NCBI GenBank assembly: GCA_964187785.1
Contig: OZ076409.1
Coordinates: 45,014,001 to 45,078,000, forward strand
Length of the DNA stretch: 64,000 bases
From: Amphiscolops sp. MND2022
Taxonomy: Eukaryota
Direction: 5' to 3'
Below the pieces are notes generated by a model. The model did no database searches and was not told the DNA's origin. It saw only the letters and a list, made by a program, of their open reading frames with translations. A program made the position numbers and the translations under genes. Of this stretch, positions 14,120-62,134 are shown one piece after another; within the stretch, counting starts at the first letter, position 1; each line of letters begins with the position of its first letter.

Positions 14120-15290
14120 TGTCGCATCCACCAAGATGCGATGGTTCCGTGGTGCAGCTTTGAAGAGGAACAGATGATAGACTCATTTCAACAAACTCTC
14201 CAAAACTTTGCTGAACCCGGTTTATATGAGGTCTTAAAACTCAATGTTGTTTAGTCTCGAAAGTCATGTAAATATGATATTTATATTATGATTGTTGTGA
14301 ATAGACCTTCATCATAGTGCTAACACACCTTCATTGCTTCATTGAGAACCCTAGTTTGAATAGTTCAATGAGTTATCTCATTGCCTGATCATATATTCTA
14401 AAGGTCCTAATGCGTCTAGATTCATAATCAGATAGTAATCTACTTCTTAGCTAGTACAATTATGCGGTACTATGCGGATTGAGGTGTGACGTATACTCGT
14501 CATTATGCGTTTTTACTAGTATCATTATGCGGCATTATACGTTTCAAGGTGTAACGAGTATGCGGCATTATGCGCTTTTCATAAAAACTTTATACGGCAT
14601 CCTGCGAACTAGTAGTGACGCATACTCGTCACTATGCGGTTCTCGCGGAACTTGTTAAATAAATCCAGCACGAGTTAAAATGTCATCTAGAAGCCATTTC
14701 AATTACAAATGAAGGTCATCTTTAGAGATTCCCAGGGTTCATTAGTTTCTTTTCCCAATCATACTGTAATGATGTCATGTAATTGTGCTATTTTTATAAT
14801 ATAACGTCATTGGACGTAATTCTATTTTTGTCTCGATTTCATACAATGACTCCCATAAAAAGGAGTGTCATGATTTTTGGATTTTGTTCGGAGTTTTCAA
14901 TCAGAGAGATTCATTAAGAATCCAACCTTCATCAAGTGCAGTTACTTTCTCAAATAACTGTAAAACTTTGATTTCGCCACTGTAAAACTTCAGATTTGCT
15001 TCTCTTGTGGGATATAAGACTAATTCAAATTCTTCTCCAAAAGGCAGAAAACATTTTCACTTGAGAATAAAATAAGAAATAAACGAAGCCGAAGGTCTAG
15101 AAGACCTGAGACACCGTCCCCAGTCAGAGAAGTGGAAGTAACACAAATAGAAACCCCTAAAACAGGTAATGAAGCTTTAATTGATCTTAGTATTGTTGCC
15201 CAAGGAAATTTAGGTGAAAATAGCTCTGAAAACCAGTTAACCGAACCTAGTCAAATAAGCAATGAGATGCAAGTTTGGACCCAAATCATG
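14120..15290 (+). repeat. 5' LTR plus leader plus gag start of element A
   Basis: 1171 bp, roughly 97% identical by eye to 28643-29814. The true LTR end is uncertain; a candidate is ...TTCATCA at ~14314/28837, followed in copy 2 by the PBS-like TGGTGC. Confidence 0.88.
14461..14640. repeat. TATGCG(G) motif array 1 (also at 28984-29164)
   Basis: About 7 TATGCG copies plus TATACG variants; contains the hairpin TAGTGACG-catact-CGTCACTA. Confidence 0.85.
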
Positions 15291-16747
15291 GAACAAAAGA
15301 ACAACGATAGGATTGAAAAGATGAGAGAAGAAATGGAAAACAAACTTGAAGCGATTCTAAAGGAAATAAAATCCAATAAGAGTGCATCCACAGTAACTAA
15401 TCCTAGGTCGGATATAAACGAAATGCGAGAAAGCCAAACTTCGGGATCCAAATGGGGTAGATCTATAGGAGTTCATGCATCTAATAACGAAAACTCTGAT
15501 TCCGAGAACGACGACTATCCTCTTAGAGCATCTAAAATGAAGGACTTGAAACATCCTGCTAAACCCTTCTTTGAAACTGAAACAGACTTAGACCAAATAG
15601 AGCTTTCAAATGAAGAATCCGAACAAGAGGATTATCACATGGTGACAGGAGCCAACCGACAACTCCATAGACAGAGCTCACAAAAGCTAAATGATACAAT
15701 TAGATCCCATGCTGTCCAAAATACAACGAACTCAATAACACAACCACTTGATCCAGTTAATCAAATTGCTCTTGCAATGGAGAAATTGGCCAACAAAAAC
15801 TCTCCCCAATCACTTTTTCACCCCAAAAATACACTCACCTTCAATGGGAAAAATGAGAAAAACGAGAAATTCGAATATTTTGAGGACTTGTTCCATACAA
15901 CATTACGAATGCAACCAAACTTAACAGAGGAAATGAAAATAAACCTTTTCCACGCCCATCTGAGAGGTTTGGCACTTAAAACTTTTAAAAACATACAAAG
16001 AACTCCCACCACGACGTTGGAAGACATTTTAAAAGTCTTTCGCCGAAAATATGTGAAACCAGAGTCCAGTGCATCTGCTAAACGTAGATTCAACAGACTC
16101 TTTTTCGACCCAGAAAACCAAAAACTCCCAGACTTCTTAGAAGAACTCCAAGCAAGTGCTGAAAAAGCGTTCGGGGACAATGCCCACCAAATGATAGAGA
16201 ACCTACTCTATGCCAAAATGCCTCCCCACCTCAAAAAGTCCATTAACCAAGCTTGTCTTGAGAATGGCACTTACGATCAAATTGTCAAACACCTTGAAAG
16301 AGAAATGGAACTTAACGGCCTAGAAGCAGATGACACACTCGTCAAAACTCAAATGACCGTTACTAAAAAAGAACAAAATACTGAAAAAACCAACAAAAAC
16401 AAACTGACAAAACCAAAAAACAAACTCCAAAAACAGTACCTGATAAAACCCTCGAAAACGACCAATGCCGTTACTGCAAGGAGACAGGTCACATGATGAC
16501 TGACTGTCCCAAATTAGCCAAACGACGCAAACTTGAGGAAGATCCGGAAGCCGAAAAATGTCAAAATTGCAACACCCTAGGACATGATGAAGAAAACTGT
16601 TACTTCGGAGCCAATATGGAAAATCGTCCAACCAAATGGAACCTCACAGAAGCTCAGAAAAAAGTCATTGAAAACTACAAACAAGCCAAAAAACCTATAA
16701 AACCAAAAATGGAACACCAAAAATCCTCGTCGAAGAATTTAAACTAG
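15072..16747 (+). pseudogene. gag: gag of element A (start codon mutated, one frameshift near 16400)
   Basis: Capsid-like FEYFEDLFHTTL...AHLRGLALKTF. Two CCHC knuckles (CRYCKETGHMMTDC, CQNCNTLGHDEENC) lie in the frame of 16493..16747. The intact start MGNKRS is seen in the 3' copy at 29596. Confidence 0.85.
16738..16744 (+). other. -1 ribosomal frameshift slippery heptamer T TTA AAC at the gag/pol junction
   Basis: Directly precedes gag stop TAG (16745-47). The -1 frame (FKLETPR...) is open and continuous with the pol ORF at 16813. Confidence 0.8.
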
Positions 16748-19700
16748 AAACGCCACGCCTTTACACAAAATCACCACAAAAACCAAACTCAATTGATGAC
16801 TGGCAGCATCAGTTGAACCCAAAACCTATAAAAACATCAGCCTGTGAAGCTGACTCAATAACAGAAAATTTACAACAGTTAACTCTAGAAACTCAACCTG
16901 AAGACTTATACGAACTCTTACACGATGCACCAGACAACTACTTTCCTGAACAATCCAACAGCGCTGAAAGTGACCCAAACCCAGAAATCCAACACAGAAC
17001 AAAACACCACGTAACAATAAAAACTTCTTGCAATAATGCGAAACAACCTCTTTTAAATGAAGACCTCACGGAACATAGACAATTTGATAAGGAACGAAAC
17101 TTATCATATCTCCCAATTTCAACCTCTTTAACATTGAAGCGAAAACGCCACTTGTACTACATTCCGATGGACTTCGAAAAACTCACGCTTGATGGTCTCA
17201 TTGATACTGGAGCTCTCACAAGTGCAATCTCAGAACAAGACCTCAACAAAATCAAATTGCTCGCCAATGAGGCAATAAAAGAAACCGGTCCCCCACCGAA
17301 CTTCCAAATTATGGTGGCAAATGGACAACTAGAAGTCCCCATCGGTACGGTACTACTAGAAATTGAAGTGGCCGACTTCATGTTAAAAGAAAACTTCATC
17401 ATCATGAAAAATCTACCGAACCCACTAATCGGATTGTGTTTCCTCCGGAGAAATAACGCAAATTTCGATGTCACACAGGGTATCCTAATCATCCCCTATC
17501 TATCAATGCAACTTAAACCAGAAACACAAACATCAATACGGCAAGCAACACCATTATTTGCTGAAAATACCTACACCTTACAACCAGGCGAAACACTCGC
17601 CATCGCAAGCAGAATGCCCCATTCGATGGATCATAATGCCACTGGCATAGTCACCCCATCGCAACAATATGAAAATCACGATAGTATTTTCATCACTGCA
17701 TCGCTCAGCACTGTCAACAACAATGCTATCGGCTATCAAATCATCAACTTCTCTGAACTACCAGACACCATTACAATGGACACCCATTTAGCAGATTTCG
17801 AGATTTTAACACCAGAACAAATCAAACATATACAACCAGTGGACCCCGCATTGTTATCGTTTATGATTCAACACGAAGAAACAACAGAGGTCCACATAAA
17901 CGAACTTCTTAAAGTACCACAACAAAATCCCGAGCAGGAGACCTACTGGTTCCCTACTCCTGATGAACCAGGCGACCCTGCAACATATACCCCAATTCAG
18001 CAACGCATCTATCAAGAGCTTCTTGATCTACAAGAACTCGAGAAACTAAACCCAAATGATAACAACTCCTCAAGAAAAACATTTCTTTCAAACTTCGACT
18101 GGTCTGATACAACACTCGGCCCAGCCGAACGACAAGAAATTGAGGAAATTCTCATCGAATTTCACGACATCTTTGCCAGACATCGTTCCGATATCGGAAT
18201 AAACCGCGAATTCAAAGTGAAATTAACGCCGAATGATGACAGACCTGCTTACAGCCAAAGTCTGCCAACTCCTATCAGTCTCAAAGATGATATCACAGTA
18301 GAACTCGCACTTCTACACAAGTACGGTATCATTACAACTTTACCTTTTTCCAAATACGCCAGCCCAATTTTTGCACAGCGCAAACCCAACGGGCGTCTTA
18401 GACTTTTAGTAGACCTCAGAAAGATTAACAACCTCATCACTGAAAATTACACCAATAACAATCACCCGGTAAGCACTTTATCAGATGCAGCACAACATAT
18501 GGCAGGGAAGAAACTGTTCTGCAAGTTGGATTGCTCACAGGCTTATCACTGCCTCCAGATGGCAGATTACCAATCCATTCAAATGCTAGCCTTTAATTTT
18601 GCCAGTAGAACATTTGCTTATCGTCGTCTTGCTCAAGGCCTCTCTAGATCACTTTCTGCATTTTCAAGCTTTATGAGAGAGTACCTAGATCGAGCAATTA
18701 AAGCTGACCAATGTGCCCAATATGTCGATGACATTGGCATAGCGGCAAACGACACAAAACAACTCTGCATAAATATCAAAACTGTCTTTGAATGCATTCG
18801 CAATGCAGGACTAAAACTCTCCATGTCAAAATGTCACTTTGGCGTCAAACAAGTCGACTTCCTAGGGCGTACAATAACACCAGACGGAGTCGCCTCACAA
18901 GCGGTTAAAACCACACAGATTTTCTATCAAAACTCCGATTCCCCAAGTCAAAGAAAGTGTTGCAAAGGTATATTGGATTTCTAAATTATTATCGAAACTA
19001 CATACCACGCCTTTCAGAACGGCTTTCTCCGTTCTTCAAACTCCTCAAAGAAACCTCCAAATTCTACGTACCCACAAACTTGGTAGAAGCCTTCACCAAC
19101 CTCAACAAACTTCTGGAAAATTCCTGCCAATTAGCATTAAAACAACCACTGAAAAGTAAACAACTTATAGTCATGTCCGACGCAAGTTTCACAGCAGCAG
19201 GATATGCTATCATGATCGAAGACGACCCGAACCAAAAACTTCAATCTAAACGAAAAACGTATGCACCCATTGCATTTGGTTCAAAAACCTTTAACCCAAC
19301 ACAAACTAAAAAGTCAATATATGCGAAAGAATTCCTTTCCATATATTTCGCATTTGTAGAGTTTGGACACCTTATGTGGGGAAGTACCTTCCCAGTCATA
19401 GTCTTCACTGACAATCGATCAGTAACACGCTTTTTTCAAGCAAAAATGATTCCACCAGCACTCTGGAACGCGTGCGATTACGTCTTACAATATAATTTCG
19501 TAATTGCTCATGTAGCTGGATCAATGAACACAGCAGCTGACTTCTTATCTAGAACAGAAGTTGACCCAACTGAAAAACTAGAAATGACAATCCGCAATGA
19601 CATTCACACCAAAGCTATTGAGGTGAATATCCAATCAACCGGAATTGTAGACGAAGAGCAAATTTACATTCTACCCGAAGTTGAAATTGACGAAAATCAA

Positions 19701-21619
19701 CTTTGGGAAGAGGAACAAAATATTCGAAACCAAGCTCAAACAGAAACACACAATGAACCAGAAACTGACGTCTCTGAACTACAACAATTTCACAAACCCA
19801 CATCGGGGTTGATCTCAATCTCATCAGGATACTTTAAAGATAATGCAAGAATTCGCCTCGAGCAGAACAACGACATCGTCCTTAGAAATCTGAGAGCAAA
19901 ACTTGAAGGAAACCCATTTGACGAAAACGAATTGGCGTCCGATTATAGATACCAACACTACTTACAAAACATAACCCGAATAGAAATAAAACAGGAAGTC
20001 CTTACACGCAAAAACTACACTGACACAGGAACCATATCTCATTACCAAATTCTCTTACCGATCCAACTTCTAGAAGAATTTCTTCAAGCCCTACATGGTC
20101 ACAATTCAAACCACCCAGGAATCACCAAGATGATTCAAGAAGCCCGACAAAAATACTACTACCCATGTATGGCTAAATACATCAAAAAATGGGTCAGTAA
20201 CTGCCAAGTGTGTATCCAAACAAAACGCATTAACAATGATCTTCTCAGACCTGAACTCTTAAATTGCCCAGAATGGGATCTTGGTCCAGAGGACATTCTG
20301 CAAATGGATATTTTGCCAAACCTCCTCCCAAGCGGAGGCTATGACCATATCATCACGGCGATAGATGTCTTCTCAAAATATTTGTTTGCTTACCCTGTAA
20401 CTCGCATCAATGCCACAACGGTGTCAAGAGTTATCATGGACATACTATGCAAGCACACTTACCTTCCTACAACGATAATCACAGATTTAGGCACTCAATT
20501 CAATGCGCAAATAACGCACGAAGTTGCAGCAGTGCTAGGAATTGAACTTAAACAAGCAACAATGAAACATGCTCAAACGATAGGACTCCTTGAGAGAACC
20601 CATGCTTCAGTCAAAACACACCTGAAAGCTGCAACAGGTGAATTCAGGAATAACTGGCATAAGTATCTACCGTTGGCAGTCCTAAACCACAATACAACGT
20701 ATCATGCATCACTCGGTTGCGAGCCTTCACGAGTTTTCCATGGTAGAATACCACATAATATCCTAGACTACAAACTTGGATATAACCCTAACCCACGATA
20801 CCAACCACAGACTGATGTGGCTGAAGAAATCCAAAAACGTATGAAAATCCTTCTAGATCAAACCAAGAAGAACATCATGCAATCTTATCTCAAATACAAA
20901 GCCTACTATGATAGGTAAGCAAAAGCAGCTCCGCTCGAAACGACAGACTATTGTTACATCCTCAACCCAAAAGCTGATACTCAAGCGACAAAAATACCAA
21001 TCCGAGAATTCAGATGGTGTGGACCATATAAAGTGGAAAAAGTACTCCCTAACAAAAATTATATTGTCCGGAGACTTGGCACTAACAAAACGCAATTACT
21101 ACACAGGATCCGGCTGCGGAAATTTATTCCACAAGCCACATTGGCAGATATTTTTGTTCGTGAAACTGATTGGCAAAAAGATGATCAAACGCCTATAGCA
21201 AATGATGATCTATAAGCCCAATCATGGAACACAAATTTTGGAACGAACCCGTTTGAAGACGGGCCGTCAGAGTTTTCTCAGGACACTGACGATGCTGAAT
21301 ATGCTCCGATTCAAATACCCGAAAATAACCACCCGCCCTCCCCTGAATCTTCAAAAAATGGTGGGGGGAACCCAGTGGAACAGACCACTGAACCAGATCA
21401 AAATTACGACAATAACGAAAATGAAATTCCACAACACATCAGTGATGATGATGAAAAAACCCAAAAAGAACCAAATAATCCATCAGTTGATGATACCCAA
21501 AAAACCCCAGAAAACTCTCAAAACACCCCATTGAAGAAAAACCCATAAATACACGTGGTGAAAAATACAACTTACGCCCCAATCCCAACCCAAACTACTC
21601 TGACTCATACAGATATTAG
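16738..21619 (+). pseudogene. pol: pol of element A (PR, RT, RNase H, IN with GPY module), disrupted
   Basis: LIDTGA protease, YVDD RT, SDAS/FTDN RNase H, HHCC zinc finger and DDE integrase, WCGPYKV. Frameshift at ~18910-18957, stops at 20916 and 21213, frameshift at ~21540. Confidence 0.93.
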
Positions 21620-21802
21620 AACAAAAAACAGACAAACATCTTCTTTTTCCTCCCTTTTTCTTCTAATAAATAACAGGGAGAGTGCCTGTTTTTTATCAGT
21701 AATGACTAGCCTGTCATAAGATAAATACGTAACAAAAACAGATATCAAACAAAACAAAGAATGGAAAGAAAACAGTAATCAATTATACACTACAATCCAC
21801 AT

Positions 21803-24800
21803 TTAGTTTTTCTTGCTTTTCGCAAACTTGGAATTGGATTTCTTGCCGGTTTCTTCAACTGAGGAACTGGAACAGCGATTAAGCGATACACTAATCCTGC
21901 TCAGACTAGGATCAGGTGAAGGAGAACTGTTCACACTTCCAGTCCTGCTGACACTGGGGGTTGTTGTAGTCGACGAAACAATTGGCCTATCATGTTGCAA
22001 AACAGCCTTGCGATAACCAGTTTCAAGTTTTCCCAACAATGATGTTCTACGGGTAGCACTCCCCCTCATGAAATTCCAGATGGAGAATTTTCTATCTGCC
22101 AATAAATCGGCTCCACGACCCAAGAGGCGGAAAACCCGACTCACTGATTTGGGATCCCGATACAGGCTGGAAACATGAGGAATAGTGCTGTACGACATCT
22201 GAAGACTTTTAATGCAAGACTGAAAGTTTTCCTCACCAGACTCTAAATCGGCCATTGGAACAATAAATTCTGGAGGCATTACAACACGTGGAGGCAAACA
22301 TAAACATGAATACTTGAACAATTGAAACAGTTCGGGTCTACATTGAAGCTCATAGTGAGAAGTCAGAAATGTAATCCAATCATCGTACTCTGGAGAGTCC
22401 CCGGATCGCAATTTAACTGCTAATGATCGGTACTGACTAACAACCTTTACTTTAACACTTGAAGTAATCAAGTTAACAGAGACGAAATGGCTTGTCAGTT
22501 TTTCAATAGCGTCCGTGTGGTTGGCTTCCGGTCCAACAAGGATAACGGCAGGATCAAATGCTGACAGTCCTCTGATGAGTCTAGATTTGATGTTCCCATG
22601 TTCCAATAGTTGTCTGCAAAACGATTTAACAAAGCAAATAGACTGTTCAACAAATTTGCTGGGACGTGGCAATTTACTCGCAGTTACTAATTTGTGAAAA
22701 TCTGCGTTGAGCACGTACTCGTCCGTGGTTCTGTATGGCAAGTCTGCTTGATCTAAATCAAGCTGCAAAAAATAGTCCCAATCTGATATATTCCCAAGCG
22801 AGGAATCCGGTAAAATACTCTGAAGCTGGGAGTAAATAAAAATGGTAAACTGACTGAAGGCGCGAAATCCACAATCCACACTCTTCTGAACTTCAGAGAA
22901 CGCTGAGTTGTCTAAAACAACAAATAAGTTAAGTATACGATAGTCCTGCATTTTCACAAAACGAAAAGAACAAGAGTTAATTTGAAGAAAGCATCAGCGC
23001 CAAAAAAACGCGCGCGGAATTATTACAGTGGAAACCGACACATTAAAGCTGAATAATCAAGGATTACACGTCACTATGCGGAACGAGGCATAGCGACTAT
23101 ACGTCACTATGCGGAATCAGCTGGATGATTATACGTCACTATGCGCAACGAGGTGTAGCGACTATACGTCACTATGCGGAATCAGCTGGATGACTATACG
23201 TCACTATGCGGAACGAGGTGTAGCGACTATACGTCACTATGCGGAATCAGCTATATGACTATACGTCACTATGCGGAACGAGGTGTAGCGACTATACGTC
23301 ACTACGCGGAATCAGTTGAATGATTATACACCATTATGCGGAATGAGCTGAATAGCAATACAGAGCAATGTGGAACGAGATACAGCGAACATGCGTCACT
23401 ATTCGCAACCAGCAGAATGGTTATGCACCATTATATATACCGTGAAAGGAAAGATATACTAATTGTGCTTCAATGAATTTCGGAGAGATGAAAAGTCCGC
23501 TACAAAATGGAATTTGAATTTTGGGAATGAAAATACTTAGAAACTGTTACAACAATAGGTAGTATGGATAGAAAACAACTAACAATGGTCTAGGACACAG
23601 CGGATGACGAAGAGGCGGGCTATGTAAGCCGTGTCGAGGCGGAAACATTCATCCAAAGTGCTTGGCTAAAACGAAAGGATAACATGAAGATAAGGAAAAT
23701 ACGTATTTTTGGTCTCAAAAGAAACATGGTAAAGGAGAGCAAATAACCTCACGCATATGGAACCGATACGCAGGAAGCCTCGCGACTTGATTGAGGTGGT
23801 CAAGCACGTGATCCAAATTATTGGATAAAGTCTCTATAATTGATGATGCATCCTGAAGAGAATACTCCAAGCGGACTACACTCTAAAAGAAAAGGAAAAT
23901 CATACCTCGGAAACTTAGACGTTTAATTAAAACGAATATAGTATTTTAATTACTTTGTGTAGTAGTGGTAACTTCTTTAACCAATCTCGGTCCAAGGCCG
24001 TTCTCAATTTCATTAAGAGAAAGTCTAATATCGTTCGAAAGTCGTGGCGCTCAATGATTTGAGAAGTTGGTAACGCAAGGCTCTTCTCAAACTCTTCTGG
24101 CCCATATGAATTGACAACGGAAGATTGCTGTTTTCCTGGGAGACAGTTTGATAGACATTCACTTAACTTTTCACTGAAGTCAATGATGGCAACACAAGGT
24201 GGAGCTTCCTCAAAGAGACTGATGAATGATGAAACTGTCATCAGAGTTTTCCTTGGCATCAACATTCCCCGTGGTCCACTTCCCAAGCAAACGTGCTGTA
24301 ATACGTTCCCCGACCAGAAGTTGAGGATTAGGTACGTTGCTGTTGGGGTATGTTGCAAAGCGAAAGAGTAATGGCCAGATGCAGCGATCGCAGTGACACA
24401 ATATCCAACCAATTCTCGGAACATGTAGACGAAAATTCCCTATGAGACAAACAAAATGTTCCTTACTCACAGTAAATAAACTTACATTAAAGGGATTTCT
24501 ATGAAGGAAGTTCAGTTCAGATAGAAAATGAATACTGTCAATTGAGAAAGAACTACTAACAAAAAGTCGCTGTGGGCTCCAATTCTGTTCACACATCCCG
24601 CTGCTGGAGGCAAGACGAGACAGTTCATCATAGATGCCGGTCAGGCTTCTGATGTGCCCACCATGGCGAAGTCCGTGTTCGAGTATGCAGATCTGCGACA
24701 ATACTTTATCGGTGGGATTGGTAACAGCATTGAAATCTGGGACAGTCTCTTGTCCCACAAGGGGCCGGCATACGTCGAGTTGAGGAGCGATTGGGTAATT

Positions 24801-26239
24801 GTTTTTGACCTTTTTCTTGGCTTCTTGCAGTGAAATTCCATAGATTTCCCGTCCTTCTCTGTCGAAGAGGGCCATACCGGGTATCTCCATGCGCATCCGG
24901 TGCTCTTTCACTAAATGAGACTAGGTTTTGTAGTGAGATAGTAATTCAAGGCTACCTCTACTCATTAGAGAAAGTTCTACCCTGCATACCCGGCACCACC
25001 ATTTGTGTGGTGTTTTGTCTTTGTCGATGGGGCCAGTGGCAGAGAATCCCAGAAATGGATGTTTCTTAAGCATAGCCCCAGTCAAAGAATATTTTGGTCT
25101 GCGACGTTTCCCTCTTCCCATTGAGTGTCCTCCTTGTAATTCATCTGGATAAACGTCAGACGAAACAGGCTGTCCTATCTCTCCTTGACTAGATGAGGCG
25201 ACGTTGGGAGCAGTTTCAGTATCGTTTACAATGGTTAGGGTCAAAGCCTGACCTTCTCTAGTCTCTTCATTGAGGACATACTCTTGTGGGATACGTTCCA
25301 GGACTCTAGTTAATGCAAGGATCTCCCTCCTAGTGATGTTAATATTGCTATGAGGAGCATCTCGTATCACAACATTACTGAAGTTTCCTCCGTCAGCTGG
25401 AGATAGTACTGGAAGCTCATTATGGGGTGGTACATTTTGCTCCGTAACGTGGGTCATAGCATGTTCAAGCCCAGAACCAGTTCCTCGAGGTAGGTATTGA
25501 CTATAATGTGGAGAAAAGGCTCGAGCTGTTTCTGAATCCATGAAGCTTTCCACTATCTCACGACTAATGTTTGCATAGGAGCTCTCCATGTCTCCCATGG
25601 GGGCCGTTTCTTGCTCAGGGTTGGTTAGAATAGTGGTGCGGAAGTTTTCAGTTGTGAGTTCTTGATGATTAGCCCCGGTTGCTATTGGAGTATCAACGGG
25701 GGTGTTCTCGATTGTGGTTTCCACACTAATTTCTTCATGGATTTGAAGCGAAGCAGTACTTGGGGATTCAAGTGATTCCGAGATGACAGGAAATTTAGGA
25801 GAGGATGTTTGCAGGGGTGTATAAACCTTGACCGGGGATTGAGTTGAATGTAATTCACTGGCCTCTAGTTCAACTGAAACAAATGATCCAGTTAACAAAA
25901 CAAAATTATGCAAGTGGAAGCTTAAATTGACTGAAACCGGACGCGGGAACAGGAAATGTATGAAAACCGGAAGCCACTTAGAAATTGGAAACGGAAACGT
26001 TTCAAAAGAATCTGAAATTGATCCGATGAACAAGGATCATTTTCACGTATGAGTATGGCCAACTCAACAAACCGAAATTTCACTGAATCAACCAAACTAG
26101 AATTATATTGAAAGTTGGACTTGCCTGGATCAGACCAGAAAGATGGATTATAATTCCTCCCTCCACCGTAACGACGAGGTGATTGCTCTTCTTGCGTCCC
26201 TTTCTCCCCAGATAAACTCTGTTCCTGTTTTCCCTCCAT
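21803..26239 (-). CDS. Predicted six-exon antisense gene (~1,079 codons): zinc finger plus degenerate hAT-transposase-like fold; one in-frame TAG in this copy
   Basis: Exons 26239-26125, 25873-24561, 24439-23954, 23882-23748, 23665-23584, 22911-21803. Four GT-AG introns and one GC-AG intron, all phase-compatible. WWCRVC...LLSHYKT*SH zinc finger; YSFALQHT and RPELFQLFKYSCLCLP resemble hAT core and dimerisation segments. Exon 1 is the least certain. Confidence 0.78.
23062..23345. repeat. Tandem array 2: alternating 32/33 bp units (65 bp dimer), core GACTATACGTCACTATGCGGAA
   Basis: Unit starts at 23095, 23127, 23160, 23192, 23225, 23257, 23290, 23322. The spacer alternates between TCAGCTGGAT and CGAGGTGTAGC types. 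Confidence 0.95.
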
Positions 26240-26640
26240 CCGAAAGTGATGTAAAGAAGGGGATAGTGGATCGTGGTTAAAAAATAAAAGATATACTCTA
26301 CAAATAAAGCATATAAGGTTGAAAATAAAGCTGAAATCGGTGAAGGGTAAAATGAGTAGATTGAACTGCAATGTTTTGTGAACTCTGGACTGATATACTA
26401 TTTTGACTATATGACTGTTTGACAAATGATGAAGTACCAAAGGCGTGGCGTAACAAGGCAAAGGCAAAGAGCAAATGATGCAAGCTTGCGCAAAAGTGCA
26501 AAGAAATACTGGAATCTGATTGGCTAATTCAATATCAATTACGTCTGCCAGCGTGATTGATTGACTCATTGTGGATCTGGGTGTGAAAATACATGCAAAT
26601 GCGTTAATATGAACCAAATTGGAATGATTTATATGCTAGA

Positions 26641-26853
26641 GTATACGGCAGTATGCGGATCGACTGAAGGCGAATATACGGCAGTATGCGGAATTGCCGT
26701 GACGAGTACGCGGCAGTATGCGGAATTGCAGTGACGAGTACGCGGCAGTATGCGGAATTGCAGTGACGAGTACGCGGCAGTATGCGGAATTGCAGTCAAG
26801 GACTATGCGGCACTATGCGGATCGAGTAGTGACGCGTACTCGGCATCATGCGG
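26641..26853. repeat. Tandem array 3: 32 bp units GACGAGTACGCGGCAGTATGCGGAATTGCAGT
   Basis: Three near-perfect copies from 26701 plus degenerate flanking copies. Confidence 0.95.
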
Positions 26854-27666
26854 TTTTCGCTGAATGCATTTAAAAGGAGTGGATTAATGTCGTCAATGAT
26901 TAGAAGCGTATGAATGGAATAGTATTTTGTAAAATAATGAAGAAACTACATACTCTTAATGACAAGACATATGTGATATTAATAATGTGCCAATACAAGA
27001 CCGGCGCTCTTTTGATTTTGATATGTTTTTAGAAGTCTAGTCTGCTGGTACATTTTGCAAGTTTTCCTGAATGGATTTACCAACAAACATGAAAACCTAT
27101 TTGCTCTATTGCTAACCCTGTTGCATGTTTCAAATGCGGGACTGGGGTTAAACAATGTTTTTCTTAAAAATAAACTTTGATTCTGTAACGATGTGAAACT
27201 GAAGTGGAAAATTTACTTTAACCTCTTTCATTTTCATGTAAACTTGGTCATGTAAGAATAAATAAAATCACTTTTGAGTTGTTTCAATGAATATTTCCAT
27301 GAAAATATTTCCTGATTAGTTACTCTGAAGTTAGGAAGAATTTGTTTATCTATCATTTAAACGTATGAAGAAAGCTATAAGCTTTGATGATGGGTGATGA
27401 TCAGTAAAGGCGTTAACTGAAACACCTTTTATGGAAATTGTTTACTACTCGTTGTGAATGAAACCCGAAAACCTACTACCTACGAAATCCTTACAAGGAT
27501 GTCTGTAGGATCAGAACATGACAAGCAATTTTTCCGCGGGTTTTCATCCAAAATCAAGAGGAAGAAGAAAATCGATCACCATATGGTCTTTGCAATCTCA
27601 TAAATCAGTTGCCTTCTAAAATCTTTGAAAATCTGAAATAATCAGTGGTTTCTCTGCAAATCAAAA

Positions 27667-28686
27667 ATGGAAAAACTCCAATTTAATACTGATGTAAATT
27701 CGCTATACTCCCTAATATCCCCTGATGTGGTGGATGTTTCGAGCGAGTCAGAATATAGCTTCTCAATGGCTTCCGGAGATATTGCTCAGCTTGACGAAAG
27801 ATTTCGAATTAATACAACTGGGAGTAACCTGATGTCGGCATTCATGGGCTCAACATTGGCTTCGTTATATGTGGATCCAGCCAATACAGCAGAACAGAAT
27901 GAGTCTGTAAGTGACACAGGGACACAGATAGAACAAGACCTGATGGAGTTGTTAGGGGAACCGCAAGAAGATACAATGATTTCCCCAAGTTCATTCATAG
28001 ATAGTGAGTTTGAAGAAGGGAATTTGTTCCCCTGGACGCTGGGTAATACCCCTCCTGAAGACACAAACAATTATGGTCGGCCTACCGCCAGGGTTCCCCC
28101 TACCCAAAGACTGAACCCCAGTGCAGGTGGAATATTGCCAAGGCCAGACCCCACTTACCCACCTAACTACAGGCCAGAGACATCTGATTTTCAGCACACG
28201 CAACCTAGTGAACCCATGGATCAAGAGCTACGCAGAGATATAGCTCCCACTCAAAGTACACTGAATGCAGTGCAAGGATTTAATTTGTCACCTGCGTTCT
28301 TCCCCATCCCAATGAGGGAAGCTCCCATTGAGAACCGACAGATCACAGTTCAACCTATGGTGCAGTTAGGCTTTCCCTTTCATGTGACCCACAGCACGAA
28401 TATCATGCTGATCCCTGCAAGAGAAAGACAAAGCATGAGACTGCTGCCAACCGTCATGTCAAATGTGGCGGGTTACTGCGACATATGTGGTAAGAGCTAC
28501 GATCAAATTGCACTGGAAACGTTGGGCGAGTACCTCATGGCAACTGAATACGAGGGAGAGACAGTGAAAGAAAGAGCGATTAGATCAAGAGCATTTATTC
28601 ATGGATTCGAAGCAGCCCAGTTCCTCTTTAAAAATGCGGGACTGTCGCATCCACCAAGATGCGATGGTTCCGTGGTGCAGCTTTGA
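27667..28686 (+). CDS. Orphan accessory ORF (339 aa) ending inside the 3' LTR
   Basis: AAAAATGG start context; intact; acidic and Pro-rich N-terminal part; C-terminal GYCDICGKSY segment and predicted helices. The last 44 nt lie in the LTR. Confidence 0.7.
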   Translation: MEKLQFNTDVNSLYSLISPDVVDVSSESEYSFSMASGDIAQLDERFRINTTGSNLMSAFMGSTLASLYVDPANTAEQNESVSDTGTQIEQDLMELLGEPQEDTMISPSSFIDSEFEEGNLFPWTLGNTPPEDTNNYGRPTARVPPTQRLNPSAGGILPRPDPTYPPNYRPETSDFQHTQPSEPMDQELRRDIAPTQSTLNAVQGFNLSPAFFPIPMREAPIENRQITVQPMVQLGFPFHVTHSTNIMLIPARERQSMRLLPTVMSNVAGYCDICGKSYDQIALETLGEYLMATEYEGETVKERAIRSRAFIHGFEAAQFLFKNAGLSHPPRCDGSVVQL

Positions 28687-29814
28687 AGAGGAACAGATGA
28701 TAGACTCATTTCAACAAACTCTCCAAAACTTTGCTGAACCCGGTTTATATGAGGTCTTAAAACTCAATGTTGTTTAGTCTCGAAAGTCATGTAAATACGA
28801 TATTTATATTATGATTGTTGTGAATAGACCTTCATCATGGTGCTAACACACCTTCATTGCTTCATTGAGAACCCTTGTTTGAATAGTTCAATGAGTTATC
28901 TCATTGCCTGATCATATACTCTAAAGGTCCTAATGCGTCTAGATTCATAATCAGATAGTAATCTACTTCTTAGCTAGTACAATTATGCGGTACTATGCGG
29001 ATTGAGGTGTGACGTATACTCGTCATTATGCGTTTTTACTAGTATCATTATGCGGCATTATACGTTTCAAGGTGTAACGAGTATGCGGCATTATGCGCTT
29101 TTCATAAAAACTTTATACGGCAACCTGCGGAACTAGTAGTGACGCATACTCGTCACTATGCGGTTCTCGCGGAACTTGTTAAATAAATCCAGCACGAGTT
29201 AAAATGTCATCTAGAAGCCATTTCAATTACAAATGAAGGTCATCTTTAGAGATTCCCAGGGTTCATTAGTTTCTTTTCCCAATCATACTTTTATGATGTC
29301 ATGTAGTTGTGCTATTTTTATAATATAACGTCATTGGACGTAATTCTATTCTTGTCTCGATTTCATACAATGACTCCCATAAAAAGGAGTGTCATGATTT
29401 TTGGATTTTGTTCGGAGTTTTCAATCAGAGAGATTCATTAAGAATCCAACCTTCATCAAGTGCAGTTACTTTCTCAAATAACTGTAAAACTTTGATTTCG
29501 CCACTGTAAAACTTCAGCTTTGCTTCTCTTGTGGGATATAAGACTAATTCAAATTCTTCCCCAAAAGCCAGAAAACATTTTCACTTAAGGATAACATGGG
29601 AAATAAAAGAAGCCGAAGGTCTAGAAGACTTGAGACACCGTCCCCAGACAGAGAAGTGGAGGTAACACAAATAGAAACCCCTAAAACAGGTAATGAAGCT
29701 TTAATTGATCTCAGTAATGTTGCCCAAAGAAATTTAGGTGAAAATAGCTCTGAAAACCAGTTAACCGAACCTAGTCAAACAAGCAAAGAGATGCAAGTTT
29801 GGACCCAAATCATG
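28643..29814 (+). repeat. 3' LTR plus leader plus truncated gag start (head of a tandem second copy)
   Basis: Copy of 14120-15290 including MGNKRSRRSRR...VWTQIM, then abruptly joined to LINE-derived DNA. Confidence 0.88.
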
Positions 29815-30056: not shown

Positions 30057-33000
30057 CTAAAAAACTTTGGTCAAGGGACCTGCCTAAACGTGCAGTGATG
30101 AAATCCCATCAATAAATAAATATTGTAAGTGCGTCTCCAGATTACTGCACTGAACGATTTCGCAACAAATAGATTGACGAAATTATATCCATATGAATGT
30201 ATTCAATTATGATTGAGCCGTTATAGCTATAATTTCATTTAGCACGTATCCTTTTCCATACCTCATATACTTACAGTATCCAATAGCTCTATTTCAGTAA
30301 GGAGAAAAGTTGATGCTTCAGTCATTATCTCTGTACAAATCTTGAAAAATTTCGGGTTTCTGCTCCAAGATATGAGGAATGCATTTCCGTCTTACGTGTC
30401 ATTGAGTGCGATTCTTTGTCGCCCATAAATTCAGCTGCGAGGGACCTTTTCTCTTCATTAATAAATTTGCAATTTAGTAATAAGTGGTGGGAATTTCGAC
30501 TCCCATTACCACATGGACAGCTGGGAGAGTTGTATCTTCTGCTGTCGTACCGGTAGAGGAACTCCTTCATCAGATATTTGGGGTAGAACAGGCTCAAGAA
30601 TATTGTTTCATATTCTCGGGTTGTGCTGGGTGGGAGTTTCAATTTCGATTTACTGACTTTGGGAGAACCAAGGAAGCCTTCTATCTGGAATTGGTTGTCA
30701 ATTGAAGATTGCTATAATAATACTGTGTATATCTGTATTTGACCCTTTGTATATGAACAGGCTTTCACAGACTGTTGGGCAAATTGATCAAGTTGACCAG
30801 TCTCAATAATACTCCTGTCGTTTTCGTTGAAGCAGTCAGAAAATTGCTCTTTTTCCATTTTAGGAATTGCATGGCATCTTTAGCTTTGTTTGACAGAGAG
30901 CTGTGGCTGCAGTCAGAAAGATGTTTTGTGACAAAAATCTTCAGGGGGTCATCTTCCTGGGAGAACAGATTTAGTTTCAGAAGATGTTTTGTGGAATTTA
31001 CTTTATTGGCTACTGATATCGGAGGGATTCCAACGAAGGCTTCAGCTAGAGATTGTTTTATATGAAATACTGCCCCGATGGCCGACTTTAGCATTTTGTA
31101 CCACACTTTTTCTACCTCCTGAATGCTTTTATTGTTTATCCAAATAATACCAGCTTAATGAATGCATATTGCAATCAGAACTTCCATGAGTCGTATAATA
31201 ACGTGTTGACGAAATCCCCAGTTCCTGTTTGTATATTTACATATAGATACCCAGCAAAATTGTATCTTCCTGTTGATTTCCTTCCCGTGTTCTATATAGT
31301 TAAGCTTCCGGTCCATCACTTGTCCAAGGACCTTGGTCTTTTCCACGAATATTAGTGTATGATTTCCGAGCTTGACGGTTTCAGGGATCAAATCGGATTT
31401 TCCTCTGCTGTGCCAAAACATATAAACTCCGTTTTGGATGGGTTGCAATTTATTATCATACGCCAAGTTGAACTCCACAGGTTTAGGGACTGACAGACAG
31501 CATCTAAGTTATCCAAACATTCACCAGTAGTTACATCTGTTATCCTCAGGGTACCATCATCAGCAAATTTGAAAAACTGAATGACTTGACCATCAACGAC
31601 ATCTTGAGCAAGATCCCTGATAAAGAATTTGAAGAGTATGGGCGATAATGCCGAACCTTGAGAAGACCGAATTCTCTACATGCCCGAAGAATACCAATGT
31701 GGTCGTTAAGAATTAGTCTGGCTTTACGATTGAAAAGAAAATTATCTATGAGTTTCCACACATTTGATTTAACACCAACATCAGCAAGCTTCTTCATTAA
31801 GCCTTGCTTCCACACACTATCGAACGCTTTGCAAAATCTATAAAAAGGCAATTAGGTATGTACTTCTTCTTCAGTTCTTCCCGAATGTCGTTGTCAAGGT
31901 GGTTGAGGTACCTAATCGTGTTTCGTTTCTTTGTGAAACCGTCTTGATATACATCGTTGATTCCAGTGGCTTTGAAGAATTTCTCGTCTTGAGGCGATAA
32001 TTTTCTCAAACACTTTACCGATATACGAGGTTATCGGTATAGGTCTATATGATCCTGGATTGGTGTAATGTGGTTTTCCTGACCTTTTTGAGGAAGATAA
32101 CATCAGCAGTATCCCATACCCACTCACTGAGTTAAGGAGAGTTCTGATTAGCTCTACGGTTCTTACTCCCAGGTGTCTCAGCATGATTGGGTGGAATCCA
32201 TGGTTATCAAAGCTTTTGTCTGTCGTTTCATATATTTTGAAGAAGTTACGAACCTCTCCTGTTGTTATTTCGGAGCTCAAAAAGTTGTTACTTTCTTCAT
32301 ACAAAAAGTGCTACTGCCCTTTGTCGTGCTTCCCGTCTGCGTCTGAAATGGTGTTGTAAATTCTATTAACGTGATCATAAAAGACATCATCAAAATCTTG
32401 GCTGATTTCTATGAGGTGCCTTCCAGCAAAGAAGCTATCAAATAGAATATTCTCCTTCTCATTTGGATCTGTTGCAATGTTATCATTATTAGAGTGGAGC
32501 GGATCAACCTTGTTATCCGATTGACTTGCAAATAACCGATTAAACTCTTTTCAGAACTGCTTACATTGCGCAACATTGAGATTTCGTGTTTTATTGAGGA
32601 TGAATTACTGACACTCTGGTATTCTCATGGAAACAAACTTCTCCTTAGCTAAATCCATGATTGCTTCATTAGAGATCGTGTTCGTTTTCAGGTATGATTT
32701 CTTGGCAATCCTAAGGGCTTTTGATGCTTCTGTAAGTTCCTTTGTCCAGTATGGCTTGCATTGGGTTGACAATTTTTTACATTTTGAGAATTTCAGAGTA
32801 GCTTCAATGATAGTTCTATCGATGATTTTCCATTGGTCCTGTGTTGAGCTATTGTAGAAGTGGATTAAATCTTTTTCCAGAGATGATTCAACGAATTCAG
32901 ACCACCCTTCAAAGTCCATGCGGTCTAGATTGATCCTCAACTTGGGAGGTTGGTTTTGAGTACCGGAGTAGGTTATCTTCATGGTTGTACTTATTGGTAT

Positions 33001-35178
33001 ATGTCCGCGCTTTGGAGCTCCGGAAAACAGTTCGACAACTGGATCTGTCAAGAGGTTACTAAACAATGGTTCTAGATTATTAGAGCATATAACAAAGTCA
33101 ATGTTGCTATTCCTAATTGAGGATAGGAATGTTGGGTTCTCAGAGCTAATAATCGAGTATTCTCGGAAATTCCTCGTGGTATTGGTTGTCAATCTGATTA
33201 CCCCACAGGCGATTTCGAGCATTGTAGTCACCAAATTCTATAATTCTTTTTGCTTTGAGTTGGCTAGCTTGTTTCTTAGCTGATTCTAGACTTTTGATGA
33301 GTTCATTAACCGCTTCTAAGTTTAAGATGGACTGATCCAACAACATATCTGAAACCTTTTCCACAAACGAGACCCCAGGTAGTGTCTAAGTTCCTTTAAA
33401 CTTTTGATACTTGTGGTAATTGGTTGATACTAAACTTTCGAGAGTTGACATAAAGTGAGGCACCTCGGTTGAGGGGTTATTTGTGTCTGTGATCTAGTCC
33501 ATGGAGTTGGCCTTAAGGTTCGTCTTGTCCACGGTTAGAGATTCTTGTATTGCTAGTATATCCATACTTTTATCATGGCAGTACTTGTCTAGTGTAAATC
33601 TGCTTCGGTCCGACATACCGCCTATGTTGATAGAACAAAAGTTGATCGCCACTTCTGATGATCTTTTTCCACTATCCTTCTTTGTATTGTTATAAGCCAT
33701 ACTGATATCTTTGTTTAACTTCCTCTAGTTTTTGCTTCATTACCTTGCAGGATTTGTCTCCTGTCAGATGATTTTCTTTACAGTGAGAACATTCCAAGGT
33801 GTCACTGTCACATTCTTTCGTTTCGTGGTTCTCCTTGCCACATTTCTCACATTTTGGTTTTTTACTGTTGCATCTTCTTGCAATATGGCCAAAACCTTGA
33901 CATCGATTGCATTTAAGGACTCTCGTTGATGGTTTATTTTCCTCAATGATGTATCTTTGTTGGAAGCTTTTTATTCGATCATTGATGGCATCAACTAATT
34001 CCTTTCTCTCCCTGAATGTCACTTTTAGTGTTCCAGTGAATTCATTATCCCTCTTGAACAGCTCAACATTCGAGACATTGTAGCGACTTTTATGTTGTCC
34101 ACTAGTTCAGATTCTTCTACCTCTTCGTAGACATGTTTGATAATTCCAATTGTATGAAGAGTTTCTGGGGATACAATACCCTCGTTTCCTCCGAACAGTT
34201 CTTTACTCCAGTTAGCTTTGAGAGACTCTGCCTCTTCCTCAGTATCCAGTTCTATCTTTAAGGATCCTCCTGCTGTTATCCTACAGTTTTGAATAATCTT
34301 TCCTGGGTGTTTCTTGTTGAACTGTGAGCGTATATGTTTACTGTTCGTGATGTTGAGATCAGCAGGTATCCCCACAAGGATTGTTCGCTTATTCCTCCTG
34401 TTTCCTCGGTTTTCATCGTGTTCGTTTTGGACGTCTGCAACTGCTGCACAATCGTTTTAGATATTTCCGAGACATTTGATGGTTTTGTGCCCCTTGCCAA
34501 CATGGCGCTGTAAGATTTCACCTGTTCGACATTATCAGAAAACCCCTCAATCTTGTCATTTAATATTGAAACATTATTGCCAATATTTTTCAACTTTTCA
34601 GTTACTTGATCCATTGCTCGTTCAATGTGAGATATGTCTGGACAATTTGAGTTATCCTGACACGATTATCAACGCCATAGTAGCCCTTCAACTTTCGTCT
34701 TGCCAGTCTGGATGAATGGCAGGGGTGGGCGGAAGTAGGTCGAAGGAACGGGATCGAAATTCAGAGTTAGTCCTCATGTCGACATACCAAATTTTTGAAT
34801 GGGATCGAAACAACTCTGATCGAAATTTTTATAACGTAGTCAGATATGTTCACATACCCTTAGTGCCCTGAATGCAGAAGCGAAGCGGAGCGACGTGCCA
34901 TATGGCCATGCCACCATGTTGCTACTTGGCGAAGGGAGCGAAGCGACCGAACCATACAACAAATACGATAAAATTCGACCGCATTCCATTCGAACCCTGC
35001 AATTCGATCAAAAGGTTCGACCTCTGTCCTTTCGACCAGAAAAATTCGACCTATTTACAGCCACCCGAATGGCAGAACACTGACTGGCACCTTGGCACAG
35101 GTGAGGTGATACCACTTGGGGCAAATTCCACATTGAATGCTTCCTGTTTTGCATTCTCCGTTGCATATACCACATGGA
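30057..35178 (-). mobile_element. Degenerate LINE (ORF1 PHD plus 3 CCHC knuckles; ORF2 APE-RT-CCHC)
   Basis: PHD CGIC...IQCGICPKWYHLTC (35075-35175, split by a MITE); CNRCQGFGHIARRC/CEKC/CSHC knuckles; SINIGG, GDYNAR, YRPIPITSYIGKVFEKII, KAFDSVW, FADD, SPSCPCG...HHLLLNC. Confidence 0.9.
34723..35066 (-). mobile_element. Mutator-type MITE copy 1
   Basis: Imperfect ~22 bp TIRs GGGTGG...TAGGTCGAA; perfect 9 bp TSD GAATGGCAG (34714-22, 35067-75). Confidence 0.9.
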
Positions 35179-58011: not shown

Positions 58012-58126
58012 ACCATTGTCAACTACATCTCACATTCAACGAAATTAAAAGGAATCGTATAACTCTCATCATTAAATCCTAACTTAACTTTATTCAACTC
58101 TCAATGCTCTCTTCGTACTATTTATT

Positions 58127-59150
58127 ACACTTGCGATAAGCAAGTGTTATGGGAAAGTGCGGGTGCTTTTTTTTCCGCGCGACAACTCTCTGATTTCACG
58201 CGGCAACTCGCACGTTTCACGCGTTCGTGGTCTAGTGGTAAGATGCTTGCTTTTCAACCCAGAGGTTTCGTGTTCGAACCCGTGGGTATGCGCTAATTTT
58301 TTTACAAGTATTCCGAAGCAGAAGGTTCTGACGTTTTTCGGCACTATGAGACTTTTCGGCTTTGTGAGACTTTTTTTCGGCTTTGTGAGACTTTTTTTCG
58401 AAATTTTTTAAATGTCCCCAAAGAGTCCTCCTTTCAATTTTTATGATATTTTGCAAGAGAACGAATGATAAAAAATCCCAAAGGGTCCCTTTTTCAGATT
58501 TTTCGGCACTATGAGACTGTTCAAAATTCTATTTTTTTTTCAAAAATTTTTCAGACTCCCTTATTTTTTTCAAAAATTTTTTAATGTCCCCAAAGCGTCT
58601 TCCTTTCAATTTTTTGATATCTTGCAACAGAACGAATGTTATAAAGTCCTAAAGGGTCCCTTTTTCACATTTTTTGGCACTATGCGACTTAGCGGAAACT
58701 TCAAAAAAATTCGGAAAATTTTTTCTCAATTTTTAGTTTTAAAAGACCGTTTTTTTAAGGACCGATCTTTTTTCTATGCGATTTTTTTAAAATTTGATTT
58801 CACCGAAGCCCCTGCTCAATTTTTACAAGAAACGAAACGTTTTGCGAGAGGACTCCTCAAGGCTTTGCGACTTACCGGAGACCATCAAAAATGTTTTCGA
58901 AAAATTTTGAAATTTTTTTTCTTCTATTTTCTGTTTAAGGATTTCCGTTGAGAAAGAATGGGTTTTTTGCTGTTTTCAGTTGGGAAAGAATGGTTTTCGA
59001 GGCTTACGCGTTTCCCTTCGGGTATTTTTTGGCGCTGTAAAATTGATGAAATTTAAATCTCCTTTTACCCTTGGTTTTCCGTATGATATTGCTTATTTGG
59101 TTTTCTTCAAAAGTTTGCAAGTCTTTGCGAAGCACGGCTTCGCCTCTGTG
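58127..59150 (+). mobile_element. Non-autonomous Helentron/DINE-1-like element with an internal tRNA-like segment
   Basis: 5' palindrome CACTTGC-GATAA-GCAAGTG; 3' subterminal inverted copy TTGCAAGT followed by hairpin GCGAAGC-acg-GCTTCGC; T-rich flanks; A/B-box segment at 58221-58293. Confidence 0.72.
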
Positions 59151-59784
59151 TCAAATTAGTAAACGAGGTCAATTACAACCAACAGCTTGTGCAGTTCATG
59201 GAATCAGGTCCTCCACTCAAGTGTCGTTTGATTGGTGTCTAAACGTAATGTCGATGAATGTTTAGCAGTCATGTTTGTAAATATTTATTATTTCAATTTT
59301 TGTATTGTCTCCCTTTGTACCATTTAGGTTTCAATTTGTATATGCGGTTGTTGGTCTCAATTTTCGTTCCAAATTCATTTCTTTTTCTTTAAATGTAAAT
59401 TTTGTTCAAATTTTGGAAAAGTTTGCCTTGCAATTTCTGTTAGTAGAGTATTAATAAATCAATTTATTACTTCGTTATTGCTACCCTTTTCTCTCTTAGA
59501 CAGTTCACCGTGCCTTTTCAATAGTAGAAATTGGTACAAAACAAAGCTTTCTGGAAAAGCCACACTTTACAAGAGAAGGCATATTGATTTATCCTCACAA
59601 CTGACAAATAACGATCAACAGACCCATCTGATTGAGAATTGCAGATGAAACAAGCTATGGAAACCCTGACGAGAAATCATTGAGCTCAATATTTTGGAAT
59701 TTTTCATTGGAAAGCTTGTCATAAAAATTAAGAAAGCCTCGGAAACGCAATACTTTAAACTTGATTTCAATGCTAAACCTATTT

Positions 59785-62110: not shown

Positions 62111-62134
62111 TAGTGGTGGTGTGTATGCCTTGAG

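Follow-up and report, generated by a model that had tools for sequence, protein, structure and literature searches.

What reads the TATGCGG arrays of a retrotransposon that also carries, on its antisense strand, a gene for a zinc-finger protein? We addressed this question in a 64-kb stretch of Amphiscolops sp. MND2022 (contig OZ076409.1, positions 45,014,001 to 45,078,000), which as a whole is called the window here. The element at 14120..29814 is a Ty3/Gypsy LTR retrotransposon by domain order and LTR features: Pfam found the Ty3/Gypsy order of protease, RT, RNase H and integrase in pol, and TG..CA LTRs together with a primer-binding site were seen across 48 LTR pairs, with 5-bp target-site duplications visible in most rows. 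The 5' LTR of the window copy is 97.7% identical to its 3' LTR at 28643-29814, and full LTR pairs with 5-bp target duplications are present in other copies of the element. The main features are listed here, with clades as given below.

14120..15639, + strand: 5' LTR, about 1.52 kb, TG..CA; the N-terminus of Gag is encoded in its 3' part
15640..15650, + strand: primer-binding site TGGTGACAGGA, identical in clades A-C, where it likewise follows the 5' LTR
15024..16747, + strand: gag, with a CCHC knuckle; Pfam PF03732 (weak) and PF00098; frameshifted in the window copy
16672..21548, + strand: pol (protease, RT, RNase H, integrase), from Pfam and ORFs; broken by a frameshift and stops
26442..26570, no strand: conserved promoter-like block with GGCGTGGC, CCAAT box, CTGCCAG and TGACTCA
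27667..28686, + strand: 339-aa sense ORF overlapping the 3' LTR, with an acidic N-part and a conserved CxxC C-part
28643..29812, + strand: 3' LTR, shortened in the window copy; the LTR array recurs here at 28981-29163

The first-pass annotation had spoken of a leader repeat, which proved to be the LTR (14120-15639, TG..CA, primer-binding site at 15640); since this repeat is a paired LTR, the two arrays in it are a single array in duplicate. The factor names for motifs in the promoter-like block, such as the CCAAT box, are labels that we presume to apply.

Conservation alone gave a model of the antisense gene, with a probable six exons and a product of about 1,079 aa.

26125..26239, - strand: exon 1, with the ATG; GC donor in the window's subfamily
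24561..25873, - strand: exon 2, with an acidic S/T/P-rich stretch, a basic patch, a C-x2-C-x16-H-x5-H finger and a helical domain
23954..24439, - strand: exon 3, a predicted RNase H-like sheet without conserved catalytic Asp
23748..23882, - strand: exon 4, 135 nt in 35 of 37 aligned elements
23584..23665, - strand: exon 5, 82 nt in all 37 aligned elements
21803..22911, - strand: exon 6, 369 codons, the predicted hAT insertion/C-terminal part

An in-phase ATG was present in exon 1 of 32 of the 37 aligned elements, and the exon 1 donor was GT in 28/37 and GC in 9/37. For exon 2, an acceptor at 26013 had been the first guess and was rejected in favour of 25874. The gene is under purifying selection: dN/dS of the clade A exons was 0.05-0.14. 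The finger pattern was invariant in 76 aligned rows. In the window copy the finger exon of the annotated zinc-finger protein is interrupted, the finger (24995-24915, - strand) having an in-frame stop at 24923-24921 between its two histidines.

We predict that the antisense protein is a hAT transposase without its catalytic acids; a hAT derivation with a BED-like finger was supported, as a prediction, by fold matches to Hermes and by Atlas finger scores. In a Foldseek search with a predicted model the six best matches were all Hermes (E 1e-3 to 3.5e-3, probability 0.97-0.99). VIA-align matched Hermes residues 142-376 (Z 7.4) and 368-609 (Z 5.1; exon 6) collinearly, modest scores that fall within the range of common folds; in the 142-376 comparison Hermes was in a tied top group, with double the aligned length, and in the 368-609 comparison it ranked first. 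The predicted models contain an RNase H-like core split by a helical insertion domain, again collinear with Hermes. In the Atlas the finger region scored 0.91-0.93 to zf-C2H2_12/zf-BED/FAM200 clusters, with no Pfam zf-BED match and no fold-search match of its own, and exon 6 scored 0.81-0.84, which serves as a lead only. With the sites of the DDE triad placed from the model, Asp was not one of the five commonest residues where strand 1 ends in 37 aligned rows, nor was any Asp conserved after strand 4, and hAT catalysis is predicted to have been lost. Pfam searches of the antisense exons and alignments, PDB sequence searches and Foldseek on exon 6 gave no match, and a search for longer proteins returned no full-length homologue. 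The genome's own hAT ORFs had no sequence match to the antisense protein, and a PF14291 search of the genome gave none, its control being silent too. No donor was found, since twenty PF05699 hAT loci of the genome had neither a profile match to the antisense protein nor arrays.

The window contains 28 copies of TATGCGG where 2.61 +/- 1.53 are expected, a count reached by 0 of 100 shuffles. As annotated, the arrays keep to one strand: 24 of the 28 copies form four + strand clusters, of 5, 7, 7 and 5 copies.

14458..14639, + strand: LTR array, 9 decamers with 5 exact TATGCGG; a TATA-like word follows about 160 bp downstream, at 14795
23062..23341, + strand: intron-5 array, 9 units alternating at 33/32 bp, in the intron 23583-22912
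26639..26853, + strand: middle array, located between the divergent starts and beside the antisense gene's conserved promoter; 6-7 units of 32-33 bp

Their placement in the largest intron (672 bp) of the antisense gene and between this gene and the divergent 339-aa ORF also held. The unit had been misread: instead of a single core it comprises two decamers, spaced at 10 bp, and a 12-13 bp spacer, and the arrays hold about 9, 6-7 and 3-5 units rather than 7-9 copies each. A period of about 32 bp was found in the intron and middle arrays (32-33 bp) but not in the LTR array, which is irregular, has 5 exact cores only and was undetected by Tandem Repeats Finder. The arrays are CpG-rich (observed/expected 1.6-1.95 vs 0.8 in the element), but GC content is barely raised in the LTR array (42%, with 55% in the middle array and 41% in the whole element). 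Decamers are 71-79% alike among the three arrays of the window and spacers 27-42%, and the spacings of 10, 21-23, 32-33 and 43 match DNA helix periodicity.

We compared 44 clade A, 14 clade B and 10 clade C elements and 18 loci of the outgroup families D and E; the majority of elements were chosen by protein, not by array, and a sixth, more distant pol family was left out. Clade A has arrays in the intron of 44/44, the middle of 43/44 and the LTR of 44/44 elements, and clade B in 14/14, 13/14 and 14/14, with 0 in the coding controls of both. Clade C (LTR pairs 95.6-99.3% alike) keeps the antisense gene, with clusters in 1/10 introns, 0/10 middle regions and 7/10 LTRs (degenerate), and with 0-2 TATGCGG per oriented 20 kb. 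The gene was present in 17 of the 18 D/E loci, which had no array and no dense motif of their own in the three places; a de novo search for motifs in C, D and E gave no array. In the D/E LTRs, a GGAC-N-GTCC palindrome was dropped as a motif of their own, being also present in their integrase. Arrays are absent from the older lineages and, because the gene is older than the arrays, these would be a later amplification and not the reason for gene capture. An obligate gene-array circuit is not supported, since clade C and families D/E have the gene without arrays. Non-autonomous derivatives, in which the antisense gene and pol are absent, keep and enlarge an A-type LTR array. Arrays in relatives lacking the gene had been named in advance as evidence against self-targeting; these derivatives are formally such relatives, but they do not decide the matter because they also lack pol and depend on trans factors. 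Modules (LTR, antisense, 339-aa) have been shuffled within clade A, whereas across clades a single nearest neighbour (RT) was found among 68 elements, an absence of swaps that may reflect DNA divergence alone.

That the arrays are neutral minisatellites produced by slippage and template switching is exceedingly improbable. Their copy numbers vary widely and they are absent in C, D and E, as such an origin would allow, but their core is kept, in contrast to spacers and synonymous sites that approach saturation, their positions are fixed beside promoters, and the array pattern has 1,226 matches in the genome while the reversed pattern has 0.

Clade A and B arrays have a common half-site and unrelated spacers. 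Direct pairs at 10 bp accounted for 73, 40 and 29% of clade A sites in the three places vs 0, 0 and 7% of clade B sites, and inverted pairs at 21 bp for 76, 65 and 70% of clade B sites vs 0, 0 and 6% of clade A sites. Each clade thus has a pair geometry of its own, common to the three places: head-to-tail at 10 bp in A and inverted at 21 bp in B. This specificity, with unrelated spacers, favours an element-encoded reader; one host factor in one genome would have no need of two grammars. As to the expected co-variation of motif and finger, geometry differs between A and B and arrays are missing in C-E, but across only three clades the half-site does not follow finger similarity, since finger core identity is 78% for B-C and 65% for A-B and trees group B with C. 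Three finger positions are common to A and B and changed in C.

Our best explanation, to which we assign a probability of about 50%, is that the arrays are clusters of paired TATRC[G/A/T]G half-sites and putative sites of the element's own antisense protein, a BED-like finger reader and activator of the LTR and the internal divergent promoter. The sequence evidence puts the odds of self-binding at about even; we infer a double-stranded DNA reader, its identity, and activation over repression. A Gypsy lineage would have gained the antisense gene from a hAT transposase whose catalysis was lost, and clades A and B would have amplified the protein's sites as arrays, reduced again in C. The protein would read half-site pairs with its finger and, once bound, switch on both promoters. 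In the passages cited, the Hermes BED domain binds short subterminal repeats cooperatively (PMC10368747), and transposases and TnpA activate cognate copies (10.64898/2026.08.24.746577). We see a little less than an even chance that a DNA-transposon enzyme was captured, disarmed and used as a Tat/Tax-like transactivator, with a private grammar per clade (head-to-tail vs head-to-head pairs) that non-autonomous parasites exploit by array enlargement.

A possible but rather doubtful alternative makes the arrays homotypic enhancers for a host factor recognising TATGCNG, with the antisense protein acting elsewhere (chromatin, integration targeting or competitor restriction). Consistent with this, the half-site is identical in A and B though their antisense proteins are only 35-41% alike, the gene is kept under selection without arrays in C, D and E, the promoter-like block with its host-type motifs is common to all five lineages, and tandem enhancer repeats are common in LTRs. 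However, such a factor must tolerate both geometries, each spread to three places with unrelated spacers; no host motif matched, and the whole word TATGCGG was absent from the literature searched. The GCM site, ATGCGGGY, does not fit most array copies. It is quite unlikely that the reader is a different product of the element (the 339-aa protein, Gag or integrase), whether or not the antisense protein takes part. The 339-aa ORF, which has no transmembrane stretch, is kept in all five lineages (A-E), clade-specific in sequence and under selection, and its acidic N-part could serve as an activation domain, but it has no Pfam match, Pfam recognised no DNA-binding domain, and array grammar differs between clades whose integrase and RT are 84-89% alike. 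We consider it highly improbable that the arrays act as RNA signals for packaging, export or splicing: clade A arrays all lie on the genomic-RNA strand and those in the clade B intron form strong folds (z -3.7 to -13), but the B folds are equal on both strands and palindrome-like, the A folds are inconsistent (z +2.3 to -3.0), and the half-site occurs in both orientations with helical spacing.

The annotation had further proposed anti-silencing. In its strict VANC-type form, in which the protein strips DNA methylation from CpG-rich arrays, this agrees with a layout like that of VANC targets in the passages of PMC5735166 and with a CpG in every clade A half-site. Between the 48 LTR pairs, however, CpG transitions (64/3928, 1.63%) were little above those at other C sites (276/22981, 1.20%), CpG observed/expected was 0.83-0.95, and many clade B half-sites lack a CpG. 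A CpG mutability of only 1.36-fold argues, indirectly, against heavy methylation and, with so little methylation signature, VANC-type demethylation is very unlikely. Anti-silencing may instead be directed against histone or piRNA marks. What is supported is that the arrays, like VANC targets, are selected cis-elements in non-coding DNA, including the antisense gene's own intron.

As far as the cited passages go, Arabidopsis VANDAL/VANC (PMC5735166) shares with our element a candidate self-encoded regulator and a short motif in same-orientation tandem repeats of non-coding DNA, including in the regulator's intron, with family-specific variants. VANDAL is a plant Mutator DNA transposon whose VANC removes methylation, whereas here a Gypsy element with little methylation signature has a predicted hAT-derived protein, putative binding and lineages with gene but no arrays; Pfam found no VANC or Mutator domain in it. 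Spm TnpA and transposase-derived regulators include a catalytically dead transposase proposed as a sequence-specific activator of both cognate and non-autonomous copies, described in class II plant elements, in a text without the words LTR and retrotransposon (10.64898/2026.08.24.746577); here a class II protein would sit inside a class I element. Hermes, in the passages of PMC10368747, has the order predicted here (finger and helical domain, then RNase H-like sheet and helical insertion) and binds paired short repeats cooperatively; our gene differs in that it lacks both a conserved catalytic Asp and flanking terminal inverted repeats, has a roughly 300-aa N-terminal extension and is replicated by reverse transcription. 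Retand/Tat Gypsy elements, in the passages of PMC11963269, PMC7264820 and PMC5418596, are alike in their long region between pol and 3' LTR, conserved antisense gene (TRP28/PMD), family-specific arrays, non-autonomous forms and proposed regulatory role; they have another domain (Pfam searches gave no PF04195 match for TRP28 here), occur in flowering plants only and have, in those passages, no motif common to the LTR and the internal arrays, while our element combines a six-exon gene model, hAT-like over its full architecture, with a divergent sense ORF.

The literature searched offered no precedent for an accessory gene, spliced by its gene model, under selection and predicted to derive from hAT, that has been inherited together with pol in five or more Gypsy lineages within a single genome. 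If binding is true, a non-plant LTR retrotransposon would encode its own sequence-specific regulator, and the genome would offer a natural experiment with matched protein-array pairs (A, B), array-free lineages (C-E) and array-only parasites, in which the role of antisense accessory genes, and of tandem repeats lying between pol and the 3' LTR, becomes directly testable.

The window contains 28 copies of TATGCGG where 2.61 are expected, and 24 of the 28 lie on the plus strand in four clusters, bearing out the same-orientation arrays described in the first-pass annotation. The arrays are indeed made of tandem units, but the unit is not the single core proposed there: it is a pair of decamers (10-bp half-sites with a TATGCGG-type core) set 10 bp apart, and a spacer of 12-13 bp closes each unit. 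Between the window's arrays, decamers were 71-79% alike and spacers 27-42%. Genome-wide, an exact two-unit pattern gave 1,226 matches and the reversed pattern 0.

The Pfam domains of the retrotransposon carrying these arrays follow the Gypsy order (gag, protease, RT, RNase H, integrase). Comparison of ten close copies placed its ~1.5 kb terminal repeat at 14120-15639; the 3' repeat of the window copy ends early, at 29812. In the 48 elements with a detectable LTR pair, the LTRs had TG..CA ends followed by TGGTGACAGGA and were 95.6-100% alike, and most of these elements had 5-bp target duplications. Since the terminal repeats are paired LTRs, what had been read as two separate "leader" arrays is a single LTR array present in both copies. 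The Gag frame begins within the LTR (window 15073-15639 and 29596-29812) with a conserved Met-Gly-Asn-Lys/Arg-Arg, which we take to be myristoylation-like, ~190 codons ahead of the primer site; this start is intact in the 3' LTR of the window copy and altered in its 5' LTR, and dN/dS was 0.17-0.21. AAATGCGGGACT occupies the purine-tract position just before the 3' LTR (28632), with a second copy upstream of the divergent sense 339-aa ORF (27132). Elsewhere, the window holds a broken non-LTR element (31155-34665), dispersed tRNA-like short repeats (58118-62138) and a 166-bp satellite (62392-64000).

On the minus strand, codon periodicity and conserved splice sites predict an antisense gene of six exons (3,240 nt, 1,079 aa) when 37 elements are aligned, four of the first 41 being omitted for rearrangement or missing anchors. 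AG was present at the five acceptors in 36, 34, 37, 35 and 37 of the 37 elements; GT was found at donor 2 in 37/37 and at donor 5 in 36/37, and donor 1 was GT in 28 and GC in 9. The introns measure 251, 121, 71, 82 and 672 bp, and the intron array sits in the last, confirming its earlier assignment to the largest intron. Exon 2 was open in 21/37 elements, and the window copy has a stop within its BED-like finger at a place open in 8/8 close copies. An exon 6 search yielded 121 scored matches, 62-100% alike, among 6,732 candidates. Median dN/dS in clade A, taken from 8-40 pairs per region and only from pairs with dS 0.3-2, was 0.05-0.14 for the finger, the end of exon 2, exon 3 and exon 6; clades B and C supplied 1-8 pairs. 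Intron 1 (window 26124-25874) contains the strongly conserved blocks CTGGCCAG, GAAACGTTTCCG and ATTTCCTGTCCCCGCGTCCGG, and part of this region is retained in one non-autonomous derivative.

Elements chosen by exon-6 protein searches, 68/71 of them mappable, fell into three clades, and RT, integrase, exon 3, exon 6 and the 339-aa ORF all recovered each clade as monophyletic. From one clade to another, RT was 85-89% and the antisense exons 35-41% similar. Clusters were scored in intron, middle and LTR.

Elements with half-site clusters (four or more half-sites), by region
Clade A: intron 44/44, middle 43/44, LTR 44/44
Clade B: intron 14/14, middle 13/14, LTR 14/14
Clade C: intron 1/10, middle 0/10, LTR 7/10
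Coding controls: 0 clusters

Next to exon 6, ten additional A-like loci had 7-17 half-sites. Searching with integrase led to two outgroup families (64-67% alike), which carried the antisense gene in 17/18 loci; TATGCGG occurred there 0-1 times per strand in 9.5 kb, and the 13 mapped loci had no half-site cluster. Outgroup-rooted integrase and finger trees gave (A,(B,C)) with support of 0.90 and 0.84. Thus, on these sequence comparisons, the antisense gene predates the arrays, and clade C most simply lost them. One outgroup locus (L212:2216-3826) has a different 537-aa antisense frame, unmatched by the exon profiles. Modules shuffle freely within clade A (L001-L080, L129-L138): 53/794 pairs had exon 6 <72% but the 339-aa ORF >85% alike, and 21 pairs had exon 6 >90% but the LTR ORF <70% alike.

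Site grammar, counted from TATGCGG anchors only and as percentages of distinct sites, differed between clades. A head-to-tail site 10 bp upstream accompanied 73% (intron), 40% (middle) and 29% (LTR) of sites in clade A, and 0%, 0% and 7% in clade B; an inverted site 21 bp on accompanied 76%, 65% and 70% in clade B, and 0%, 0% and 6% in clade A. This clade-specific pair geometry, together with the unlike spacers and the lack of a consistent RNA fold in clade A arrays, points to a double-stranded DNA binder as reader. Such geometry would fit an element-encoded reader better than the main rival, a shared host factor reading the arrays, which we regard as rather unlikely. Against an element-encoded reader, however, speaks finger similarity: the core of B is 78% similar to C and 65% to A, and only three positions are common to A and B but changed in C, in a comparison whose three clades are too few to test motif-finger co-variation.

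The antisense protein had no match among Pfam and PDB sequences. In Atlas, a protein-cluster resource, the finger region scored 0.91-0.93 to hAT-type N-terminal fingers, its best matches (0.94-0.95) being unnamed clusters. An AlphaFold model from finger to exon 3 (natural read-through copy, pLDDT 75, 24 intron-coded residues included) contained an RNase H-like sheet; its six best Foldseek matches were all Hermes, a hAT transposase, and VIA-align matched Hermes 142-376 over 159 residues (Z 7.4, rmsd 5.5), level with three RNase H-like matches that were shorter. For the exon 6 model (pLDDT 80), Foldseek returned no matches and VIA-align put Hermes 368-609 at the top of 48,161 chains, over 177 residues (Z 5.1, rmsd 6.0). 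The single scores are modest, and it is the collinearity of the two Hermes matches that supports the hAT assignment. No conserved catalytic Asp was found in the protein, which these models predict to be a dead hAT transposase. The literature searched, which included PMC5735166, PMC11963269, PMC7264820, PMC10368747, PMC5418596 and 10.64898/2026.08.24.746577 and lay outside Repbase and most subscription papers, held no LTR element with a hAT-derived antisense gene, although Repbase or those papers may have one on record.

The system of arrays and predicted antisense gene is real, selected and unusual. Its layout works like that of VANC and TnpA, plant transposon-encoded regulators, although the element belongs to neither system. 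C-to-T differences between LTR pairs affected 1.63% of CpG sites as against 1.20% of the remaining C sites, and CpG observed/expected was 0.83-0.95, values that make heavy germline methylation of the elements unlikely. The arrays are therefore probably CpG-rich as a side effect of the motif, and the suggested VANC-like anti-silencing in the strict sense is a weak analogy.

We give roughly even odds (0.5) to the proposal as a whole, that the antisense protein reads the arrays and raises element transcription. The antisense gene would be started by host-type promoter motifs, which are common to all five lineages. The protein made from it, as a multimer, would bind the paired sites in three places: ahead of the LTR TATA word, between the two divergent promoters, and inside the gene's own intron. 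It would increase transcription by way of its acidic N-terminus or together with the 339-aa protein, which is also acidic. On the sense side, window 27425-27540 holds the promoter-like conserved words CCTTTTATGG, TGTTTAC and TTTTCCGCG, presumably CArG, Fox and E2F sites.

Array-only derivatives may borrow the antisense protein. Among ten loci picked by arrays alone, 9/10 were short derivatives in which neither pol nor antisense exons lay near the array and the main cluster held 11-39 decamers, and A-type geometry occurred in 10/10; one was an element of 3.9 kb that has LTRs, a target duplication and a primer site. Derivatives (L081-L098) are abundant and 2.5-3.9 kb long; their hybrid arrays are enlarged, and some of these derivatives lie in tandem.
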